Source of the DNA: a virus
Reading direction: 5' to 3' (one strand)
DNA: 64,000 nt
Virus record (IMG/VR): IMGVR_UViG_650716067_000001
Shown here: positions 1 to 64,000 of the stretch, one piece after another
Layout of the letters: every line of letters starts with the position of its first letter
How positions within the stretch are numbered: the stretch's first letter is position 1
Program-made: the position numbers and the translations under genes
Notes under the pieces: model-generated
What the model saw: the letters and a program-made list of their open reading frames with translations, nothing else
What the model was told of the DNA's origin: nothing
Database searches by the model: none

Positions 1-122
1 GGACCTGAAGTCTTGCAGCTGCTGCAGCCAGCAACTACAAGACCAAGTACGCTATTTCTAATATTTAATATCGAAGGTTCATTACCGCATTCGCATTGCA
101 CAAATTCAAACTTATTTGGCAT
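1..122 (-). CDS. Partial small Zn-ribbon protein, possibly Lar-like restriction alleviation family; runs off window edge
   Basis: Own translation MPNKFEFVQCECGNEPSILNIRNSVLGLVVAGCSSCKTSG; two Cys pairs. Confidence 0.4.
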   Translation of the reverse strand, partial: MPNKFEFVQCECGNEPSILNIRNSVLGLVVAGCSSCKTSG

Positions 123-124
123 TC

Positions 125-451
125 CTAAACCTCATTAGCAATCTTCAGCAAAACCGCTGCGTGACATTCATCCTCTTGATACATTTCATGAGGAGTAGGG
201 CACCAACACGCTAAATTCTTCCCGGCAAGTTGCATTCTTGCGGCGATAATCAATTTATCGTTGTGTTGAGCGAACGATCGGTAAAGAACAAAAGCATGTC
301 GTCTATCTTGAACCATAGCGCCAGGTATAAATGGATTCTCTTTCCCGATAACGAATGGATTGCCCCATTTTGTCGTGCGGTCCACCTTCACCGTGTTTTC
401 CGGCATACGCCAGCCTTTGGTACGTTTAAGCTGAACTCGCTGTAGCTTCAT
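125..451 (-). CDS. DUF4326-family phage protein
   Basis: KVDRTTKWGNPF and LAGKNLACWC...CHAAVL motifs; start placed at MKLQRV. Confidence 0.75.
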   Translation of the reverse strand: MKLQRVQLKRTKGWRMPENTVKVDRTTKWGNPFVIGKENPFIPGAMVQDRRHAFVLYRSFAQHNDKLIIAARMQLAGKNLACWCPTPHEMYQEDECHAAVLLKIANEV

Positions 452-5076: not shown

Positions 5077-5704
5077 TTTTTGCCTCGTCATATTTCATGA
5101 TTCCCCACACAATCGCGTACAGATTCCAGATATAGTGAAATGTGTATTCCTCGGTGCCGCCACTATCGAAGAAATCAGTAAACCCAATGCCCTCATACTC
5201 AAAACCATGAACCGCGTCATACGCTCTATGCTCATCGTCCTTGTGATAAAGGACATCTTCTTTAATTGCGCTCCAAAGCCTTTCTTTTTCTTCATCTCCA
5301 AGATCATCACACATGACGTCCTCAAAATGATTCTTGACTCTTTCTTCAAAAATATCAGCGTCAAACTCTATATACCCGGCATTTGTTCCAATACTTTTAA
5401 GTTTTTCACCCCAATAATGCGGATTGATATTCAGCAGCACGCCTTTCTTCTTATTGAAGTCGTTATCATCCATCTTGAAGAAATCGAACATATCGTGAAC
5501 TCTCGAGAAAACGTAAGTACCGCAATCACCAGAAATGCACAGATTCCCAGGCCAAGTAATTAAATCGAACCAATAATAACTACCACCTTCAGCACGTCTG
5601 AACCTGACAAATCTATGTACCCCATCATCTTTTTCGATACTGATTTGATGGTCTTTCACATCATTCAAGAATCGTTCTTGAGTACATTCATGTTGGTTAC
5701 TCAT
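5063..5704 (-). CDS. Conserved hypothetical phage protein
   Basis: YWFDLITWPGNLCISGDCGTYVFSR. Confidence 0.7.
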   Translation of the reverse strand: MSNQHECTQERFLNDVKDHQISIEKDDGVHRFVRFRRAEGGSYYWFDLITWPGNLCISGDCGTYVFSRVHDMFDFFKMDDNDFNKKKGVLLNINPHYWGEKLKSIGTNAGYIEFDADIFEERVKNHFEDVMCDDLGDEEKERLWSAIKEDVLYHKDDEHRAYDAVHGFEYEGIGFTDFFDSGGTEEYTFHYIWNLYAIVWGIMKYDEAKNASK

Positions 5705-5867
5705 CGCGCGCCTCTTTCTTTGCTAGTTCTTCAAGAAGTTTTGAGTTTATTGATGAAAAAGTCAGCCACGTTCCTGATCTTTCGTCATATTCAAGTATTT
5801 TTGAATCATCGCAGAGCGCAAGTAATGCGCCGTTATAAACAATAAGCTGGATAATTTTAATCATCGT

Positions 5868-7586
5868 TCAAGCCGCCTCCAGAGCACCAATAACGCCGTT
5901 GCTAATCCAGTGAGTCTCAATGCTTGACGGCAAGCCGGTAGGAGGTGTTTTCAGCGTTCCGAAAACCATTAATGTTTCGATATCGTTTGAGCGAGCGAGA
6001 GAATCGACCCATTTTATAAATGAAATGCGCCCGTTATTGTCGAGTAGATCAAATTCATCGCACATGAAGAATTTAAGCCCGGTCACATAGCTTATTGCTT
6101 CGGCAATCATGACGTTTATGCGCCACTTGGCCGATTGTGAGGATAGGCCGTATGGTTTGCCGCCATAACTGATGGTCATATCTTCAGAGATAACAACCAG
6201 TTTCCAGCCGGTTATCTCGGATGTTTTTGCTAGTCGGTCATTGACCGGCGCTATTGCTGTTTTGAGTATTTCACCGGGTATCCCATCGGGTGCAAGTGCT
6301 GCAGCTATCGCGCCCCATTCTTGAACATCGGTGTGATATCCGGCTGCTTTCTCGGTTTTTTCATCGGCAGTAGCAGCAAGTTTTGTGTTTTCATTCATCA
6401 AATCCAGTGCTTCTTGCGCTACCTTACGTTTTGTTCTCAGAGCCTCAATCTTTTCCTTAAGTTGATTGATTATTTCTTCACTGATTACTTCTTTTTCTGC
6501 CTTCTCAATCTCTGCCAGCTTGTCTTTTGCATATCTCGCCGCCACAAGATCACGCTCGCCGTTTTCCACTGAATTTTTGAGCAATGTAAGTGCGCTTTCT
6601 AATTCCGGAAGCTTCACGGCAGCATCTTCATCGCCTTGCAAATCACCTTCACGCTTAACAAGTTCTTTACCATTCCAAAATAACTCAGAATCGCATGATG
6701 GGCATTTACACGCGATATTGTCAGGCGTTGATCCTTGCGAAAGTCTGCGTGCGTCCTCTACTTTGACCGTCATCAAGGCAAGTCCTTTACGATCTAGCGC
6801 CAACTTGGTTTCAATGCGCTCAATCTTCTCTGATTTTTCACGCAAGCCATTAATTTCCTTGTCTTTCTCACCGGCATTTTTAAACTCTGTTTCAAGTGAT
6901 CCCAGTTTCTTGTTTTCTTCATCAAACTCAGCGCTGATATTTTCGAGCGCTTTTTGTGCAACGGCCACTGCTGATTGATCCACTTCTGGCTTCGCCGCCT
7001 TCCAAGCGACCGCTTTTTTATCGCCATACACTTCACCGGTAGTTGTTTTCCAACTTGATCGAGCATCTTTGGTATTTTCGATTGCTTGCTTTTCAGCATT
7101 GCTAAATCCTGACATTAAAAAAGGTATTATTCCGTCAACCTTTGCTGTATTGCATCCGCGTTCCAGCAATTTCGCACGGATTTTATTAACGTCTCTTTTT
7201 GTGGCCGTTATCTCTGTAATTAGAGAGCGTCTGTTTTCCTCGGTAGCCGCAGAAAAAAGCTTGGGGTCGAGTAAATAGGGTAGGGCTGAGTGCATTTGCT
7301 CTTTTATCTCTCTGGCACCATTTGGCAGCGTTATGCTTGCTTGTTTTCCGCCATCGTACTCAAGGTAGCAGTAGCCAACTGTTGAGCCATCATTTACCAA
7401 GTGCTTGTAATCTTTTTTGTTAGATACGCGGGTACTTTCTCCCGTCAGAGCGTGAATAATTCCTTCGTAAATGCTCGATTTGCCTGCTTCGTTTGATCCG
7501 CAGATCAAGTTAATTGCCGCTTTTAATTTCAGGTCTACTTGTTTTGCTGCTATTAGACTTTGTACTTTCAGTATTTCTAGTTTCAT
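5868..7586 (-). CDS. Rad50/SbcC/SMC-like coiled-coil ABC ATPase
   Basis: Walker A GSNEAGKS, central coiled coil with CPSC, signature-like LSSQS, Walker B FFMCDE. Confidence 0.85.
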   Translation of the reverse strand: MKLEILKVQSLIAAKQVDLKLKAAINLICGSNEAGKSSIYEGIIHALTGESTRVSNKKDYKHLVNDGSTVGYCYLEYDGGKQASITLPNGAREIKEQMHSALPYLLDPKLFSAATEENRRSLITEITATKRDVNKIRAKLLERGCNTAKVDGIIPFLMSGFSNAEKQAIENTKDARSSWKTTTGEVYGDKKAVAWKAAKPEVDQSAVAVAQKALENISAEFDEENKKLGSLETEFKNAGEKDKEINGLREKSEKIERIETKLALDRKGLALMTVKVEDARRLSQGSTPDNIACKCPSCDSELFWNGKELVKREGDLQGDEDAAVKLPELESALTLLKNSVENGERDLVAARYAKDKLAEIEKAEKEVISEEIINQLKEKIEALRTKRKVAQEALDLMNENTKLAATADEKTEKAAGYHTDVQEWGAIAAALAPDGIPGEILKTAIAPVNDRLAKTSEITGWKLVVISEDMTISYGGKPYGLSSQSAKWRINVMIAEAISYVTGLKFFMCDEFDLLDNNGRISFIKWVDSLARSNDIETLMVFGTLKTPPTGLPSSIETHWISNGVIGALEAA

Positions 7587-11873: not shown

Positions 11874-11945
11874 TTTTACTCGCTCCGTATGGTTGCTTGA
11901 TCAACTCACCAGCGCTTACGACTTATGGGGTGTTGATGAGATTAT

Positions 11946-11986
11946 TACACCATACGGTGTACATTAAGTCAACACCAAATGGTGAA
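11946..11986 (-). promoter_or_regulatory. PL promoter with two 16-bp operators (OL)
   Basis: TACACCATACGGTGTA 11946-11961 and AACACCAAATGGTGAA 11971-11986; TTGACT on minus strand between them. Confidence 0.8.
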
Positions 11987-12017
11987 TATTTTTTCTTACG
12001 CCTGAATTTTTGGCAAT

Positions 12018-12039
12018 AAAAAACCCGCCTGAGCGGGTT
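12018..12039 (-). terminator. Intrinsic terminator ending the cI/PEP-CTERM/J-domain transcript
   Basis: AACCCGC-ctga-GCGGGTT hairpin with U-tract on minus strand. Confidence 0.75.
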
Positions 12040-12067
12040 CTGTGGTGCGTGTAGAGCGATTAATTAC

Positions 12068-13174: not shown

Positions 13175-13951
13175 TTATTCTGTTAATGATCTTCTGCGGC
13201 GTGCCATGAACCCAATCAAACCAAGCCCCGCCAGTAGCATTGCGTATGTTTCCGGCTCTGGAACCTGTGATACTGGATCAGGGTCAGGAATAATAACTGG
13301 TGGCGGCAGTGTTACGTTAATATTATCTATCGCAAGGAAATTAGTGCTGTCTTTGGTGATTGTTACGCTCGCAAGATTGGTGAATCCGGTGAGGTCGTGG
13401 TGGGTGAAGTCATTCCCAATCTGAATGTCGCTATTAAGAGCGGTGGAATCAAGTCCAAAAGATTGGCTAATTGAGCCACCACCAACAAAATTACCTGTAA
13501 TAGTAGTCTCAGTTTCGCCATAACCAGCCTGCCACATAACCAAATCCAAGGAATTTAGTGAAAATGGTTCGTTGCTGGCAAGACTGAATGTCAATGAGGG
13601 TGAAAACATCGCGTAATCCGTCCCGTTCCAAGCTGTTAAGAACGTATCAATCACAGACCCAGACAGCCCCGTATTGCTGCCCCAATTCTGCATATCAACC
13701 ATATACAATGCATTGTCTATACTTATTGATGAATTAAGGTTAGTTCCAATGCTGGTAAACTTAAATCCATCAATATTGGCTACCGAGCTATTGGTGAACA
13801 CGGTTACAAAGCTATCGTGACGGCTTATGTCCTCTCCGAGCATGTGACTTCCTGCCAGTCCGTCAAAAGTGATTAATTCCGCTGAGACATTTGATACCAA
13901 TCCGATTGTTAAAACACCGGCTATTGATGCTGCAATTAGTTTTTTCTTCAT
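13175..13951 (-). CDS. PEP-CTERM sorting-domain surface protein
   Basis: Signal peptide MKKKLIAASIAGVL..VSA; C-terminal VPEPETYAMLLAGLGLIGFMARRRR. Confidence 0.93.
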   Translation of the reverse strand: MKKKLIAASIAGVLTIGLVSNVSAELITFDGLAGSHMLGEDISRHDSFVTVFTNSSVANIDGFKFTSIGTNLNSSISIDNALYMVDMQNWGSNTGLSGSVIDTFLTAWNGTDYAMFSPSLTFSLASNEPFSLNSLDLVMWQAGYGETETTITGNFVGGGSISQSFGLDSTALNSDIQIGNDFTHHDLTGFTNLASVTITKDSTNFLAIDNINVTLPPPVIIPDPDPVSQVPEPETYAMLLAGLGLIGFMARRRRSLTE

Positions 13952-14410: not shown

Positions 14411-14445
14411 ATCTGCATTACAACAAGTAATCATCATTTGGTAAA

Positions 14446-14490
14446 TTCACTATTTGGTGTTGACAAACAGTACACCGTACGGTGTATACT
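14446..14490 (+). promoter_or_regulatory. PR promoter with two 16-bp operators (OR)
   Basis: TTCACTATTTGGTGTT 14446-14461; perfect palindrome TACACCGTACGGTGTA 14471-14486; TTGACA 14460 and TATACT 14485. Confidence 0.85.
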
Positions 14491-14497
14491 GTGCAGC

Positions 14498-14752
14498 ATG
14501 AAATTAAAAATATATATCCAGTCGTTATCAGTAAACGAAAGAGTCGTTTTCGCTGAAAACTGCGAGACAACACTCAAGCATCTCAGGAACGTTGCATACG
14601 GATACAAGATTGCCGGAGAAAATCTATGCATAAATATAGAGCGCGAATCTAAAGGTGCAGTTAGGTGCGAAGAATTGCGAACAGATGTTGATTGGGGGTT
14701 CTTGCGAGGAACAAGCAAGCAAGCCCAAACAAACTCAAAAGATGCGGCATGA
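14498..14752 (+). CDS. Cro/YdaS-like repressor
   Basis: FAENCETTLKHLRNVAYGYK...CINIERESKGAVRCEELRTDVDWGFLRG. Confidence 0.85.
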   Translation: MKLKIYIQSLSVNERVVFAENCETTLKHLRNVAYGYKIAGENLCINIERESKGAVRCEELRTDVDWGFLRGTSKQAQTNSKDAA

Positions 14753-14793: not shown

Positions 14794-15393
14794 ATGCAAC
14801 ATAAATCACATAAAAGATCGTGGATTTCAGTTGTTTCTGACCATGTTGAAGGGTGGAAATCGGCAAATAAGTGGAGTCGTGAAACTACTGCAGAAGCGAT
14901 AGTGAACAAATACCATGAGATTTATCCAAATGGATTGCCTGGGGTAGAAGAGTTCTCAAATCACCCTGACATGTTCACGCGCAACCGGGTAAATGCAACG
15001 CGCATATTCCGCTGGCTTGATGACCGCACAAAAGATAAGAATTTCCTTGATTCAAACTTTCTATCAGTGATCCTGCAAGCATTGCCGGATGGCATTCGAT
15101 TGCACTGTTTGAATGAAATGTTGCGACCAATGGATATCGTTGCAGGCTCAGTAGAGCAACAAGGAATAATTTCTCAAGATAAACCAATTTCACACCTTAA
15201 ATCATTGATAAAAGAAAGCGCGGAAGCTTGCCACGCAATTACTGATCTCATTGACGGAGAAACTTACGATGAGTTGGTTAAAGCGCAGCAAGAGCTAATA
15301 GATTTGGAAAGAAGCGTCAAGGATGCCAGAGCATTAGTTGATTCAAAACTTTCTGCCTTGAATGTTAAATCAATCAATGCAGCAAAAAATTAA
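14794..15393 (+). CDS. CII/YdaT-like regulator
   Basis: Immediately after cro; RVNATRIFRWLDD...ILQALP; helical C-terminus. Confidence 0.55.
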   Translation: MQHKSHKRSWISVVSDHVEGWKSANKWSRETTAEAIVNKYHEIYPNGLPGVEEFSNHPDMFTRNRVNATRIFRWLDDRTKDKNFLDSNFLSVILQALPDGIRLHCLNEMLRPMDIVAGSVEQQGIISQDKPISHLKSLIKESAEACHAITDLIDGETYDELVKAQQELIDLERSVKDARALVDSKLSALNVKSINAAKN

Positions 15394-20087: not shown

Positions 20088-20816
20088 ATGAGTGAGATAG
20101 CAATCCACAACGGCAAAACCGTGACTATGACCAGTATTGAGCTGGTTGAATTCATCAATTCTCAGCGTGGAGATGGTGAAGCGATTCTTGCCCACTCAGA
20201 TTTTTTAAAAAAAGTGCTACAGGTATTGGGTGAGAAAGATGCGGGAAATTTTTCCGGCATCTACAAGGACTCAATGAATCGCAAGAAACCTTGTTACGTT
20301 TTCCCAAAACGGGAGGCATGCCTGATGGCTATGAGTTATAGCTACGAATTGCAGGCTAAGGTTTATGACCGGATGACGGGGCTAGAAACACAACCAACTA
20401 TCGACTACGCCAAGCTATCGAAGTTACAAATTCTTCAATTAGCTATGGAGTCTGAGCAAGAGCGGCTAGCCCTTGAACACAAAGTCGTAGAGCTTGCACC
20501 AAAAGCCAAGGCACTTGATCGCATAGCAACGCACAGCGAAGGATCATTTTGTATAAGGGACGCGGCCAAAACTCTGCAAGTTAAGGAAAAGGTATTGAAG
20601 CAAACGCTTGTTGAGCGCAGCTGGATATATCGTAGACCGATGGGGTCTGGATATCTAGCTTATTCGGAAAAGCTGAAAAGAGGGCTGATGGAACATAAGA
20701 TCATCCGTGGTGAAAGGCCGGACGGTTCTGAGTGGGTGGAAACACAGGCGCGAATCACGGCGAGAGGCATGGCTTTGCTGTCAGAGATATTTTCGAGTGA
20801 ATTGGCTTTTGGTTAA
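20088..20816 (+). CDS. Phage antirepressor, Rha-like N-terminus and ANT/KilAC C-terminus
   Basis: TMTSIELVEFIN...CYVFPKREACLMAMSYS; LAPKAKALDRI...IRDAAKTL...RITARG. Confidence 0.88.
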   Translation: MSEIAIHNGKTVTMTSIELVEFINSQRGDGEAILAHSDFLKKVLQVLGEKDAGNFSGIYKDSMNRKKPCYVFPKREACLMAMSYSYELQAKVYDRMTGLETQPTIDYAKLSKLQILQLAMESEQERLALEHKVVELAPKAKALDRIATHSEGSFCIRDAAKTLQVKEKVLKQTLVERSWIYRRPMGSGYLAYSEKLKRGLMEHKIIRGERPDGSEWVETQARITARGMALLSEIFSSELAFG

Positions 20817-26640: not shown

Positions 26641-27912
26641 CTAAAAATAAAATCTTGTTTGCCTATGAGCAATAATTTGATCAGTATCGTGGATATTTTT
26701 AGCTGAACGACGCTTACTGCCATCTTGTCCAATAACTTCCAACTCGCCCAACTGAATTAACTCTCCCACAGCATCGCGATATACTTGAGCGGACGCAGGC
26801 GACATATTGCATGTGGTTGCAAACATTTCCCCAAACGGCATACCATCAGGATCTGGATAGATTATGTATGGAATCTGTTCCATCAGAGTTTTAATACTTT
26901 GATCTCTCGCATAATCATCAAAAAGAAAGCCTGGTTGCCCTGTATATGACCCATCATATGATGGAATATAGCCAAGAGCAGAAAACATTTCCATTCCTGG
27001 GCCGCCATAATGAATGAAATTAGTATTTTTCTCCCAATGTATACGAGTCATAACATCTCTAGCGCGAGCCTTCTGTGAAAAATGTATTAACCAATAATCA
27101 CCATGCCCTTTTTCTGATCTTATAAAGAATAAAGTGAAGTATTTAGCACCACAGCCATCTACCAAATCTTTGTATAAACAGGATTGAATATACAAACGCC
27201 AGTCGGGCTCTTTATCTTTTATATCTTCGATAGTACGCCCACGCAAAATTTCAGGAATGCCTATCTTATCAAGCAATTCGCGAGTCACGTCAGTTTTATC
27301 AGTTATATAATTAAGCATGGAGTCCACAGCGAAAGTTAGTATGATTTCACTCCCATGCAACTCCTGCATTATTTTCCTAATAGTAAGCTTAGGCACTTTA
27401 GAATAACCGTATTGATCTAATAAAAAAATTGCCCTAGCCGCACGAGGACTGCGTTTCTTCACATATTCTATAATTGAGTCGGCTTGTTGTTCGAACAAAG
27501 AAGTATGCAGAAAAATATCTTTATCGATTCTAGAACCATATCCACGTTTAATTAATTCATATTTCAGATGTTCTGAAGCTTGGCGATTTTCCTCGATAAA
27601 GAAAAAATCTAGGTTAAGCACGATCGGTTTATGCCTGTCTTTATTGACTATGAGCTCAGCTTCTTTTGCCGATTCCAGCATTATGAAAGGAGAACCAAGA
27701 AGCTCTTTGCTATCAAGTGCATGTTGATAAGCTCCGCCTCCAGCAAAACCATCAATTAGAGCAAGCCTGAACTCTTCTCTCCTGGGATTCGAAATGAGCG
27801 TTTTAATGTAAGCTATAAGATATGAGCGCAATATCTCATGCTTTACTACGCTATGTTGCTGAATTAGTGGATATGGTTGTCCCGGTTTCCATTCATAGTG
27901 AACTTCTGTCAT
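26641..27912 (-). CDS. Three-Cys-motif partner protein (TcmP-like; SAM-binding fold, C-terminal wHTH)
   Basis: HSVVKHEILRSY, LIDGFAGGG, GSP, FFIEE, FLLDQYGY; adjacent to DUF5131. Confidence 0.8.
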   Translation of the reverse strand: MTEVHYEWKPGQPYPLIQQHSVVKHEILRSYLIAYIKTLISNPRREEFRLALIDGFAGGGAYQHALDSKELLGSPFIMLESAKEAELIVNKDRHKPIVLNLDFFFIEENRQASEHLKYELIKRGYGSRIDKDIFLHTSLFEQQADSIIEYVKKRSPRAARAIFLLDQYGYSKVPKLTIRKIMQELHGSEIILTFAVDSMLNYITDKTDVTRELLDKIGIPEILRGRTIEDIKDKEPDWRLYIQSCLYKDLVDGCGAKYFTLFFIRSEKGHGDYWLIHFSQKARARDVMTRIHWEKNTNFIHYGGPGMEMFSALGYIPSYDGSYTGQPGFLFDDYARDQSIKTLMEQIPYIIYPDPDGMPFGEMFATTCNMSPASAQVYRDAVGELIQLGELEVIGQDGSKRRSAKNIHDTDQIIAHRQTRFYF

Positions 27913-27946
27913 TATCTATTTCATTTAAGATTTATTCAGTGTCTGA

Positions 27947-28687
27947 CTACATAAATGAAATTGGCATTTCATTCCACACTCTGCCATTCAAAATACGTCC
28001 ATTTTGTTTTTTTGCGCGCTTTTTGCCATCAGCTCCCCAGCCTCCCCATTGCTTAAAGAAAAAGGCAACTTTGGCTTCTTTGCATTGTTCTTGAATCGCA
28101 TCAACCCAATCCTGTTTCATTGGTCGTGCTTTTGGCCCAGATTCACCACCTACAATAACCCAATGAATATTGGTCAGATTAATTTTACCGATATCTTCCA
28201 GCAAAGGCTCGACTGAAAGAAAACGAATTCCAGCATTAATTTGACGTAATTGATCTATTCGAGGAATACCGTATTGTTTATCCTCAACAGAAACTCCTAG
28301 CCAAGCGTTGGATGGTGCTTGTTTTCCAGAAAAATATTCAGCCATGCGTTCAGCACGTTTGGTCAATATTTGAAAAGTATGGTGGCTAGCACTGTAAATA
28401 GTTTCAAATACCCGATCTATGTATTCAAATGGTACCTCTTCATGGAAAAGATCAGACATAGAATTAACAAAGTAAATTGTTGGTATTCTACGTTTTAGAG
28501 GATCATTCAAACGCTGCGGTACTAGAGATAACTTAAATCCATTTTCATATCCTGGCGTTCCCATAGCTTTCAGACGTTGTGCCATAGATTCTGCATAACA
28601 ATTTTTGCAGCCTGGAGATACTTTTGTACATCCCACAACTGGATTCCAGGTTTGCTCCGTCCATTCAATACTACTTGTTGTGGTCAT
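27947..28687 (-). CDS. DUF5131 family (Gp37/Gp68-like, radical-SAM-like three-Cys motif)
   Basis: SIEWTEQTWNPVVGCTKVSPGCKNCYA, FVNSMSDLFH, LTKR, WVIVGGESG, FFFKQWG. Confidence 0.92.
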   Translation of the reverse strand: MTTTSSIEWTEQTWNPVVGCTKVSPGCKNCYAESMAQRLKAMGTPGYENGFKLSLVPQRLNDPLKRRIPTIYFVNSMSDLFHEEVPFEYIDRVFETIYSASHHTFQILTKRAERMAEYFSGKQAPSNAWLGVSVEDKQYGIPRIDQLRQINAGIRFLSVEPLLEDIGKINLTNIHWVIVGGESGPKARPMKQDWVDAIQEQCKEAKVAFFFKQWGGWGADGKKRAKKQNGRILNGRVWNEMPISFM

Positions 28688-28738: not shown

Positions 28739-29212
28739 TTACCTCAACACACTATACCCACGTCCGGCCATGCAGCGCGCGATCATTTGATTGTGGGTGA
28801 GCGCTTCGTTTCCTAGTCCTCCGATTGCTCCACCAGCTGCGCCTGCTGCCGCCATCATTCCGGCATCTACGCCAACGATTGCGCCAATTAATGCCGCCGT
28901 TCCGGCTCCTACCGCAGCGCCACCTAACGTGTTGCCAGCATAGTTTGTGTTATCTGCGGCGATGGCGCGGCATTGGATGAGATCGCCTTCGTAATTACAG
29001 CCTTTGCATGATGCAGGATCAACTACCGGGCGGTAACCACTAGAATTTTGTTTCGATTTCATGCTTTGGCGCACGAGTTCGGCTTTCTGCTCGTAAGTTA
29101 ATGATGGGTCAGCTAGAGCACGGTCAAGTTGCTGTCTTTCAATTTCCCGACGTTCGTGCGGCAATTGGCAGCCTGCGATTATTACAGCAATCAAAATAAT
29201 CAGTAGTTTCAC
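28739..29212 (-). CDS. Glycine-zipper lipoprotein
   Basis: Lipobox IIAGC; GGAAVGAGTAALIGAIVG...AGAAGGAIGG. Confidence 0.8.
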   Translation of the reverse strand: MKLLIILIAVIIAGCQLPHERREIERQQLDRALADPSLTYEQKAELVRQSMKSKQNSSGYRPVVDPASCKGCNYEGDLIQCRAIAADNTNYAGNTLGGAAVGAGTAALIGAIVGVDAGMMAAAGAAGGAIGGLGNEALTHNQMIARCMAGRGYSVLR

Positions 29213-62404: not shown

Positions 62405-63115
62405 TTAAGCGGGGCTTGGCTTTAGCGTACATGCTTCTACTAAGCTTCTCCCCAAGACAGCTGGATAAATGTGGCCAAATAATTGGCCTCCTCCCCATGT
62501 GGTTGGTAGTGAGATGCAACCTAAGCGTGCGAGGTTTGCTAAGGCAAGTATAACTTCTGCATTTGGTGGTATAGGTTGCGCTCTATTATCTTCATCATGG
62601 ATTACTATTTCAGATGGTAAATTTGTTGTTATAAGTAACTTATTACTAATGTCGCCCTCTGGTAGTGCATAGATAACCGATAATATCTTTGCTTCTAAAT
62701 TGGAGAGCCTCTCCAAGATGTCAATGTGTGTGCGATTAAGATCAATAGGACCGTTCTCAATAGTGGAATTAACAAGCAATTTTGCCCATAAATCCTGCAA
62801 ATAATCGTCATCTTCAAGCGAAGCAGCCTCAAATAAAGGAATGGCAAGTTTTAAAGGTATTGGTTTAATTGGAGTATCAATGCCGATACTATTCATAAGG
62901 GTTCTTGTTTTCTGTATAAAACTCACCTGCCTTTCCAAACGCATATATTTTAATTTGTCCTCATATATTCCAATGGCTTGTTCTAATGGACCAGATATGA
63001 AACGCGAAATGAAGCCACCCACTTCCTTACTTGCTTCGATAGCTTGCCCGGTTGTTTTTGCTACTTCTTGAACTGCTTTAGCAGTTTCTTTCACAGCTTC
63101 AATTTCTTCTGTCAT
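62405..63115 (-). CDS. Abi-alpha / DUF4393-like protein
   Basis: IPLKLAIPLFEAASLEDDDYLQDLWAKLLVNS...IDILERLSNLEAKIL. Confidence 0.7.
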   Translation of the reverse strand: MTEEIEAVKETAKAVQEVAKTTGQAIEASKEVGGFISRFISGPLEQAIGIYEDKLKYMRLERQVSFIQKTRTLMNSIGIDTPIKPIPLKLAIPLFEAASLEDDDYLQDLWAKLLVNSTIENGPIDLNRTHIDILERLSNLEAKILSVIYALPEGDISNKLLITTNLPSEIVIHDEDNRAQPIPPNAEVILALANLARLGCISLPTTWGGGQLFGHIYPAVLGRSLVEACTLKPSPA

Positions 63116-63208
63116 ATTTATATCCTGAGATCCAATAAGTAATCCTTACCATATTCAGCGAAGGTGCATGCTTAGCGATATGTAATAGATTGCTGATGTT
63201 GCAATTTT

Positions 63209-63598
63209 CTAACCATGTAACGCCAATTTAGCAATAAATCCTGAGCGAGATTCCCCAGCCTCTTTCGCCGCCGCATCGATACGACGAAGTACGCGCGATG
63301 GAAGCGTGATATTTATGCGCTCAACCTTATCCGATAATTCGGCCAGATCAATTGTGACGACTGCCCAGACCCAGCCTTTGTATTCAGGATTGGCTTGATG
63401 CTCACTGATGCTTTTAGGGTGAGGCACAGAGCCGCCATCATCAATTACGGTTTCTAACCACAATTCAATTGCTTCTTTTGCTTTATCGATTGCTTCATCA
63501 ATCGTATCGCCCGCAGAAAAACAGCCTGGAAGATCAGGAACGACCACGCCGAAAGCGTGCTTGTCATCACCAGGTTCAATTGCTATTGGATATCTCAT
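63209..63598 (-). CDS. hicB: HicB antitoxin
   Basis: YPIAIE...FGVVVPDLPGCFSAGDTIDEA; C-terminal RHH RINITLP. Confidence 0.93.
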   Translation of the reverse strand: MRYPIAIEPGDDKHAFGVVVPDLPGCFSAGDTIDEAIDKAKEAIELWLETVIDDGGSVPHPKSISEHQANPEYKGWVWAVVTIDLAELSDKVERINITLPSRVLRRIDAAAKEAGESRSGFIAKLALHG

Positions 63599-63608
63599 GT
63601 AATTCCTC

Positions 63609-63791
63609 TTATTTAAGCCCCGCTTGTTTTAACAACTTGTTTGAGAGACCAATGCCAAGGTCTTTTTTAGGATGCGGAACGCTGATATGACCGCTTTTCT
63701 CAGGATGAGTATAAACGTGGTGCGATCCCTTGGTTCCCCGTAGTGACCATCCATCCTTTTCAAGTTGTTTGATAATTTCTTTGCTGTTCAT
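63609..63791 (-). CDS. hicA: HicA toxin
   Basis: MNSKEIIKQLEKDGW...KGSHHVYTHP...VPHPKKDL. Confidence 0.93.
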   Translation of the reverse strand: MNSKEIIKQLEKDGWSLRGTKGSHHVYTHPEKSGHISVPHPKKDLGIGLSNKLLKQAGLK

Positions 63792-63846
63792 GTTGTGTAT
63801 TGTACACACCATTTTAAAAAGATCAATAGTGTGTTCAGTTATCCAC

Positions 63847-63887
63847 CGGAAAACCAAGCAAATTGAGGGCTGTAGCGTCTCTATGAT
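63847..63887 (+). promoter_or_regulatory. Late promoter motif CGGAAAA-N28-TATGAT for a gene continuing beyond the window
   Basis: Direct count. Confidence 0.7.
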
Positions 63888-64000
63888 GATGGTCATAAAT
63901 TGCCATCATCAGGACGTTAACAATGATTTCTTTCGCAGAAAAAAGAAAAATACAAAGCACAATATTAGAACAAAACAAGATTCTTTCCAGCAATCCATCG

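Follow-up and report, generated by a model that had tools for sequence, protein, structure and literature searches.

A predicted exosortase substrate encoded in the immunity region of a lambdoid Nitrosomonas prophage

The window analyzed here, the whole 64,000-nt stretch taken from the IMG/VR virus record IMGVR_UViG_650716067_000001, is prophage DNA from end to end and belongs to a genome (a single contig of 3,783,444 bases) that matches the ammonia-oxidizing bacterium Nitrosomonas sp. Is79. Downstream of its repressor gene, in the interval between the left and right operators (OL and OR), lies a gene whose product carries a predicted export signal and a PEP-CTERM tail. Judged by its sequence, this product is a genuine PEP-CTERM substrate of the exosortase type encoded by a prophage. 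On balance, we favor the view that it is an accessory gene of the lysogeny module of this lambdoid prophage, acting through the surface mechanism proposed below (coordinates in Table 1).

The N-terminus of the protein runs from MKKK through a 15-residue hydrophobic core (LIAASIAGVLTIGLV) to SNVSA, followed by E, and by sequence this has the standard form of a Sec signal peptide, predicted to be cut after A24; none of 23 aligned homologues varies at this residue. The C-terminus is VPEPETYAMLLAGLGLIGFMARRRRSLTE. Its tail VPEPETYAMLLAGLGLIGFMARRRR, residues 229–255 of 258, places a PEP motif, a hydrophobic helix and a basic cluster in this order at the extreme end, and P231 and E232 of the motif are likewise invariant in the homologue alignment. 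The Pfam model PEP-CTERM (PF07589) matches residues 229–253 with 41.3 bits against a cut-off of 20.7 (expectation value, E, 1.4e-10) and is the only Pfam match of the protein; the NCBIfam models TIGR02595 (24.6 against a cut-off of 16) and NF035944 (36.5 against 35) are passed as well. Scores for the curated body families all fall under their cut-offs: NF038120 (QFxxD) gives 46 against 80, floc PepA (NF033554) gives 37.8 bits against 80 in a weak full-length match over residues 4–255, and NF038126 (FxDxF) gives 47.4 against 50, from the tail alone. The protein therefore stands outside every curated body family.

The position of the gene was read from the operators. An inverted duplication of 42 nt (86% complementary) links positions 11946–11987 and 14445–14486, and both copies contain TTGAC(T/A) and the 16-bp palindrome TACACCGTA(C/T)GGTGTA. 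This palindrome has two sites in the 64 kb, at OL and OR alone, where 0.09 would be expected. At OL, the 16-bp palindromic operator TACACCATACGGTGTA sits between the hexamers of the leftward promoter pL, which points away from the PEP-CTERM gene, and a second operator, CACCAAATGGTG (CACC-N4-GGTG), adjoins the first and overlaps the −35 hexamer. On the minus strand, the order is repressor gene, a 35-codon open reading frame (micro-ORF), PEP-CTERM gene, J-domain gene, terminator and pL, and on the plus strand, Cro-like, CII-like, O-like and P-like genes diverge from the repressor gene. The region thus has the divergent repressor and cro genes, the operators at both OR and OL, and the following cII and replication genes of a lambdoid immunity region, and by sequence the two sites are its OL and OR.

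The identity of the repressor is weak by sequence. Its PHROG match, to the transcriptional regulator phrog_5736, is weak (E 9.8e-6), it matches nothing in Pfam, and its best PDB sequence match, to a phage CI, has an E of 0.043. Since these searches were insufficient, the protein was called from its fold and context, mainly its position, the operators and a predicted helix-turn-helix (HTH) fold. Its AlphaFold model (predicted local distance difference test score, pLDDT, 80.6) has an XRE/cI-type HTH with a helical tail, and its best PDB fold matches, all weak (E at least 0.013), are all HTH repressors, namely Rep of Salmonella phage SPC32H from the Rep-Ant complex as the top match, DdrO, HigA, P22 C2 and lambda cI. 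Relatives of the repressor in other phage contigs are encoded divergently from Cro/CII-like genes. The antirepressor gene further right would fit induction through antirepression of a non-cleavable repressor that has no peptidase domain.

The PEP-CTERM gene has the same orientation as the repressor gene and begins 96 nt downstream of it, and the genes of this region are so closely packed that starts and stops overlap. By folding and a consensus scan, no significant hairpin or terminator lies in the 96-nt gap that follows the repressor gene or in the 21-nt gap past the PEP-CTERM gene; the strong intrinsic terminator lies 28 nt past the stop of the J-domain gene, just upstream of pL. This layout, in which the genes are tightly coupled and transcription from the repressor gene meets no terminator before the PEP-CTERM gene, suggests that the PEP-CTERM gene would be co-transcribed with the repressor in lysogens. 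The geometry is that of lambda cI-rexA-rexB, with the gene downstream of the repressor within the OL–OR interval and a terminator before pL. The likeness to RexA and RexB is one of position alone, without a relation in sequence or fold, and searches of Pfam, PHROG and PADLOC matched neither the PEP-CTERM protein nor the J-domain protein to a Rex family. Furthermore, Rex is an abortive-infection pair of a cytoplasmic and an inner-membrane protein, whereas here a predicted exported, surface-sorted protein is followed by a J-domain protein.

A preliminary description of this DNA had already recognized the signal peptide and canonical PEP-CTERM tail and had placed the gene at the rex position within the OL–OR interval, directly downstream of and co-oriented with cI. 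The signals are confirmed by the invariant A24 and the Pfam and TIGR02595 scores, and the placement by the inverted duplication, the unique palindrome and the gene order. Co-orientation also stands, but "directly downstream" needs amending, as the intervening gap holds the micro-ORF, and the gene called cI encodes an HTH repressor-like protein that is short and lacks a peptidase domain.

Whole-protein homologues are few, and the named ones come from Nitrosomonas; the full-length form was found in Nitrosomonas alone among 185,579 species genomes. The body is present in only 4 of 190 genomes of the family, which argues that the gene travels with mobile DNA, and the more distant family members P0021 and P0015 have ordinary chromosomal settings. 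Wherever the context is usable, the homologue belongs to phage DNA and closely follows a repressor-like gene, which in turn diverges from a Cro/YdaS-like gene. Eight other phage or prophage sequences hold a homologue at this repressor-downstream slot, with 31–81% identity where measured; the viral contig L042 has a 31% relative. Between the window and related phages, late-early genes are 85–98% identical and Cro proteins 34–41%, and the repressors and replication modules are mutually non-homologous, whereas the PEP-CTERM gene retains ~80% protein identity, with a ratio of nonsynonymous to synonymous substitution rates (dN/dS) of 0.10–0.19 at a dS of ~1. The shared slot and this ratio indicate that selection conserves the gene as part of the lysogeny module, and a family that occupies the same slot beside unrelated repressors under purifying selection is what we would expect of an accessory gene.

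The slot is not reserved for one protein type. PEP-CTERM proteins with HAF repeats are encoded in the same slot or the next gene in L041, L043 and L056/L072, so exosortase substrates with different bodies occupy this place. Past the slot, relatives differ in their genes, which point to defence or stress: the products include UmuC, HicAB, a nuclease whose N-terminal domain is of the type I restriction kind, and a protein with weak, under-cut-off matches to histidine-kinase-like ATPase domains. When 19 IMG/VR loci with the same tail type were surveyed with a Cro hidden Markov model, this Cro family was nearby in three clear cases (L041, L043 and L056); we claim no general frequency, because the remaining loci may have other Cro families or be host flanks. 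Among 50,697 records of cultured phages, neither megablast of the 20 kb surrounding the gene nor tblastn of the protein gave a match, though low-complexity masking may hide tail-only hits.

Two observations in the relatives stand beside these results. A Nitrosomonas metagenome-assembled genome (MAG) on one contig has two tandem PEP-CTERM paralogues downstream of a prophage repressor (L065; G065:C1, ~1286600–1288050). The early-right operon of the related phage L035 encodes, at 5494–6048 (-), a protein of 171 to 184 residues with a weak DUF4114 match and a 31-residue match to the window protein, which is possibly another exosortase-tagged phage gene.

For cellular PEP-CTERM/exosortase substrates, the reference is Haft et al. 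2006, as cited in PMC4886054; cleavage and transfer have been proposed for exosortases (PMC4886054), and sortases offer a further analogy. The 64-kb window encodes no exosortase, so the prophage protein would depend on a host enzyme. The one exosortase of the genome lies ~197 kb from the window; it was typed as XrtB (423 bits, cut-off 275), and its neighbors in an exopolysaccharide (EPS) gene cluster are EpsG and a B-type EpsI (EpsI-B). An exosortase is present in 77 of the 91 good genomes of the genus. The host genome has 44 PEP-CTERM matches, of which the prophage copy scores highest, and its tail is 82–89% identical to many of the host tails. The best host match to the body reaches 36% over 149 aa and is a copy beside valS in the chromosomal branch of the family; recent capture from the present host was therefore rejected. 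The prophage protein resembles cellular PEP-CTERM substrates in its Sec signal, its PEP motif with transmembrane helix and arginine cluster, its many paralogues and the presence of XrtB in an EPS cluster. It differs from them in that its gene lies within a prophage immunity region, on an element without an exosortase of its own, and in a body that falls under the curated cut-offs.

In the AlphaFold model of the protein (pLDDT 81; predicted template modeling score, pTM, 0.71), a beta sandwich leads through a proline-rich linker to the tail helix. Among solved structures, BtuJ1 and BtuJ2 of Bacteroides, both DUF4465 proteins, come closest (Foldseek E 1.8e-8; template modeling score, TM, 0.44–0.49), followed by carbohydrate-binding modules (CBMs), and the ESM Atlas gave DUF4465 and concanavalin-like (ConA-like) clusters with TM of 0.53–0.58. 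DUF4465 (PF14717) gave no Pfam sequence match; the fold similarity is TM 0.44–0.58. Some Atlas clusters with this jelly-roll fold bear PEP-CTERM or type IX secretion (T9SS) tails, and the AlphaFold DB clusters that match the fold are other PEP-CTERM proteins; viral structures gave weak matches to tail-fibre tips and nothing better. In the model, the body shares the jelly-roll beta-sandwich class with DUF4465/BtuJ proteins and CBMs (PDB 9qpm, 9fct and 4jqr; CBM11 and CBM29), at 12–17% identity, and neither a B12 nor a sugar ligand can be inferred. On the model, the body would be a surface-displayed ligand-binding module that probably binds glycans.

We propose the following mechanism. In the lysogen, the 120-residue repressor would bind the paired OR and OL operators, and the repressor transcript would continue through the micro-ORF, the PEP-CTERM gene and the J-domain gene and end at the terminator before pL. 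Sec would export the pre-protein, which would be cut after A24, while the C-terminal helix and an RRRR stop-transfer would keep its hold on the inner membrane. By analogy with sortases and with the proposal for exosortases, host XrtB would then recognize VPEP, remove the tail and hand the ~200-residue lectin-like jelly-roll domain to the envelope or the exopolysaccharide layer, where this domain would alter the lysogen surface. That the prophage protein in some way changes the surface of the bacteria carrying the prophage is probable.

What that change would do can be graded by analogy. Surface proteins that adjoin phage repressors are usually exclusion factors, and for this reason a block to the adsorption or entry of related phages, i.e., superinfection exclusion at the surface, is our tentative first choice, held with rather less than even confidence; Cor, Llp and SieA are comparable to exclusion by the Ltp lipoproteins. 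The latter, known from temperate Streptococcus thermophilus phages (TP-J34; PMC3952083), are the example that we follow. They are alike in being surface proteins of a lysogeny module that are anchored by a host pathway; they differ in using the lipoprotein pathway instead of the exosortase/PEP-CTERM route, they have no homology to the prophage protein, and for the latter exclusion is only proposed. We rank a change in aggregation or floc matrix next, because PEP-CTERM proteins and exopolysaccharide are both needed for floc formation in Zoogloea resiniphila according to PMC9012009. Here the protein would join the host exopolysaccharide and make lysogens clump or stick, benefiting the host and so the prophage without acting on other phages. 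The weak full-length floc PepA match, the location of XrtB in an EPS cluster with EpsG and the lectin- or CBM-like body fold are all consistent with such a role; however, the PepA score is far under its cut-off and the precedent of exclusion factors such as Ltp points the other way. No evidence here separates aggregation from adsorption blocking. We regard an aggregation protein as possible, if rather unlikely, and leave the remaining probability to some other effect.

Two further explanations would remove the gene from the settled lysogen or deny it a role. It might be transcribed solely from an establishment promoter that depends on CII, or only once the prophage is induced, and act early in infection, for instance on the surface of the infected cell. 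A CII-like activator is encoded, the establishment promoter of lambda also transcribes through cI-rex, and no maintenance promoter passed the consensus scan. However, the gene is directed away from pR, and the terminator and pL divide it from the leftward early operon; since no terminator intervenes, a promoter sustaining the repressor in the lysogen would run into the PEP-CTERM gene, and we consider confinement to the infection phase improbable. A neutral passenger, that is, a host PEP-CTERM gene acquired by chance and without a role for phage or lysogen, would accord with the chromosomal members P0021 and P0015 of the wider family, with the distant paralogue beside valS and with relatives that lack the gene or have a broken copy. 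Against this stand the eight other sequences that fill the slot despite differing immunity and replication modules, the dN/dS of 0.10–0.19 (at saturating dS), the absence of a close host paralogue and a GC content that resembles that of the flanking phage genes, which together leave a passenger highly improbable.

Several observations weigh against the reading of a lysogeny-module accessory gene acting at the surface. The MAG that hosts the tandem copies (G065, 83% complete) has 12 PEP-CTERM matches and no exosortase by two queries. The lectin-like fold match is moderate (PDB TM ~0.45) and does not come with a nameable ligand, and searches of PHROG and PADLOC gave no family for the PEP-CTERM protein. 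A candidate maintenance promoter on the opposite strand at OR (TTTACC, 17 nt, TGTAAT, ending 6 nt before the repressor ATG) was read by eye, is not listed by the consensus scan and has G at the key second −10 position. Within the PEP-CTERM gene, the consensus scan placed one weak terminator-like hairpin (13464–13478), in a hit count equal to chance. The gene is also not obligatory, as other genes come after the repressor's relatives in L066 and L067; in L035 two additional genes separate it from the repressor, and the L064 copy is in two pieces, for which a frameshift or an assembly error is possible.

Reliance on the host, which the preliminary description had proposed from the missing exosortase, agrees with the absence of such a gene from the window and with the single XrtB and 44 PEP-CTERM proteins of the host. 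The comparison with host paralogues that it had suggested gave tails 82–89% identical to many host tails and a distant best body match, and the suggested survey of phages for PEP-CTERM genes beside cI gave the eight sequences with unrelated repressors and purifying selection described above. It had not known this as a described phage function, and our literature search likewise turned up no paper in which a phage gene is connected with PEP-CTERM. Its inference of lysogenic conversion of the cell surface, by receptor masking, superinfection exclusion or altered floc formation, is partly supported. Surface conversion by prophages has precedents, as does PEP-CTERM sorting; what is new is to see the two combined, and conserved next to the repressor across a group of phages.

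Exosortase/PEP-CTERM systems are common among environmental bacteria and tied to exopolysaccharide and flocs; little is understood of their mechanism or of the roles of their many substrates. Phages that retain such a substrate in the lysogeny module make a compact, testable case, with a single gene, a single host enzyme and a natural lysogen in pure culture. If adsorption is blocked, superinfection exclusion would have a new anchoring route; if aggregation is changed, prophages would have a hand in how ammonia oxidizers form flocs and biofilms, which is relevant to wastewater nitrification. It would also follow that PEP-CTERM genes in prophage-like regions should not be taken for host DNA. 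A wider reading, speculative and doubtful at present, is that exosortase-sorted proteins, the present jelly-roll family and HAF-repeat proteins among them, are a routine part of the immunity operons of temperate phages in Nitrosomonas and probably in other betaproteobacteria, sometimes in tandem, that prophages set the coat of ammonia oxidizers, and that the Cys-rich micro-ORF is a new small partner or regulator of the cassette. Prophages would then control phage adsorption as well as aggregation into the flocs and biofilms that underlie wastewater nitrification.

Table 1. Features of the immunity region and related loci (window positions unless another sequence is named; identities are to the window PEP-CTERM protein)
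Feature	Position	Strand	Basis or remark
OL/pL	11944..11987	(-)	TTGACT, 17-nt spacer, TGTAAT; hexamers read from sequence
Intrinsic terminator	12017..12040	(-)	G+C-rich stem AACCCGC/GCGGGTT, loop TCAG, T run; sequence and fold
J-domain gene, 361 aa	12068..13153	(-)	C-terminal J domain (HPD motif); third immunity-operon gene, 21 nt past PEP-CTERM stop
PEP-CTERM protein gene, 258 aa	13175..13951	(-)	Open reading frame and Pfam/NCBIfam tail matches
Signal peptide (predicted)	residues 1-24		Part of PEP-CTERM protein
Jelly-roll body (modeled)	residues ~25-216		Part of PEP-CTERM protein
Pro-rich linker	residues 217-228		Part of PEP-CTERM protein
PEP-CTERM tail	residues 229-253 (nt 13193-13267)		Part of PEP-CTERM protein
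Micro-ORF, 35 codons	13957..14064	(-)	Conserved motif; ends WCEMEECKCKARKG
cI-like repressor gene, 120 aa	14048..14410	(-)	XRE/cI-type N-terminal HTH and helical tail; no S24 peptidase domain
OR/pR	14445..14490	(+)	TTGACA, 17-nt spacer enclosing operator TACACCGTACGGTGTA; second, weaker operator CACTATTTGGTG
Cro-like gene (YdaS/P22 Cro-type HTH)	14498..14752	(+)	Pfam YdaS_toxin E 7.2e-7; phrog_35 E 6.4e-10
CII-like activator gene	14794..15393	(+)	phrog_163 E 1.8e-16
Antirepressor gene (ANT/KilAC)	20088..20816	(+)	Pfam ANT 76.9 bits, E 1.8e-21
Homologue, L032 (Nitrosomonas MAG)			81% identity
Homologue, L035			80% identity; two extra genes between repressor and PEP-CTERM gene
Homologue, L041 (IMG/VR viral contig)			79% identity
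Homologue, P0008 contig			57% identity
Homologue, L038			56% identity
Homologue, L036			36% identity
Homologues, L064 and L065 (two more Nitrosomonas genomes)			~40% identity over part; L064 copy in two pieces, L065 two tandem copies
HAF-repeat PEP-CTERM gene, L041	7924-9078		Repressor-proximal
HAF-repeat PEP-CTERM gene, L043	4963-6147		Repressor-proximal
HAF-repeat PEP-CTERM gene, L072	1056 onward		Repressor-proximal; PEP-CTERM end at L056 5728-6117

The Cys-rich micro-ORF begins with an ATG that overlaps the final 17 nt of the repressor gene in another frame, and 6 nt separate its stop from the PEP-CTERM ATG. The motif at its C-terminus, V-x-x-[IL]-[NS]-[DEA]-W-C-[ED]-x-E-[EP]-C-[KM]-C-K, recurs at the same place in L032, L041 (L041/L068), L064, L069, L070 and L072, where the repressor genes whose 3' ends adjoin it are not homologous. 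The viral contig L042 also has the micro-ORF, and in L069 it is not followed by a PEP-CTERM gene. Codons switch between families for Ser (AGC/TCA) and Leu (TTA/CTG/CTC), which suggests coding constraint and translation. The micro-ORF may encode a small protein in its own right or extend the repressor through a frameshift. An RNA leader before the PEP-CTERM gene was also considered and rejected, since folding was no better than that of shuffles (z -0.5) and the micro-ORF reads better.

The J-domain gene takes the rexB-like place, last in the immunity operon, and was not found in the related phages examined. Its start is uncertain, an odd GTG with no ATG for ~135 codons. The match to Pfam DnaJ is weak and under the cut-off (E 0.0063), and the nearest Atlas clusters are DnaJ (score 0.91). 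Membership of the PEP-CTERM and J-domain proteins in a defence system was rejected, as PADLOC gave no match for either.

Elsewhere in the window, the left side holds genes for a single-stranded DNA-binding protein (SSB), an SMC-like ATPase, an exonuclease, a RecT-like protein and a PD-(D/E)XK protein, and the right side those for terminase, portal, tail sheath and a lytic transglycosylase. The integrase gene lies ~400 bp beyond the left edge; a search for attachment (att) sites between the integrase side and the right flank gave no direct repeat of at least 14 bp and no tRNA. Other cargo includes a two-gene candidate defence system at 26641–28687 (-), with PADLOC matches to PDC-M30A (E 4.5e-19, GMT-like winged HTH) and PDC-M30B (E 1.3e-114), and, past the last structural gene on the right, an Abi_alpha/PDC-S47-like gene with a HicB-HicA toxin-antitoxin pair at 62405–63896 (-). 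Finally, a 157-aa open reading frame at 28739–29212 (-) has a weak, under-cut-off match to the surface-exclusion lipoprotein TraT (E 9.8e-6) and may be a second surface-acting gene of the prophage.

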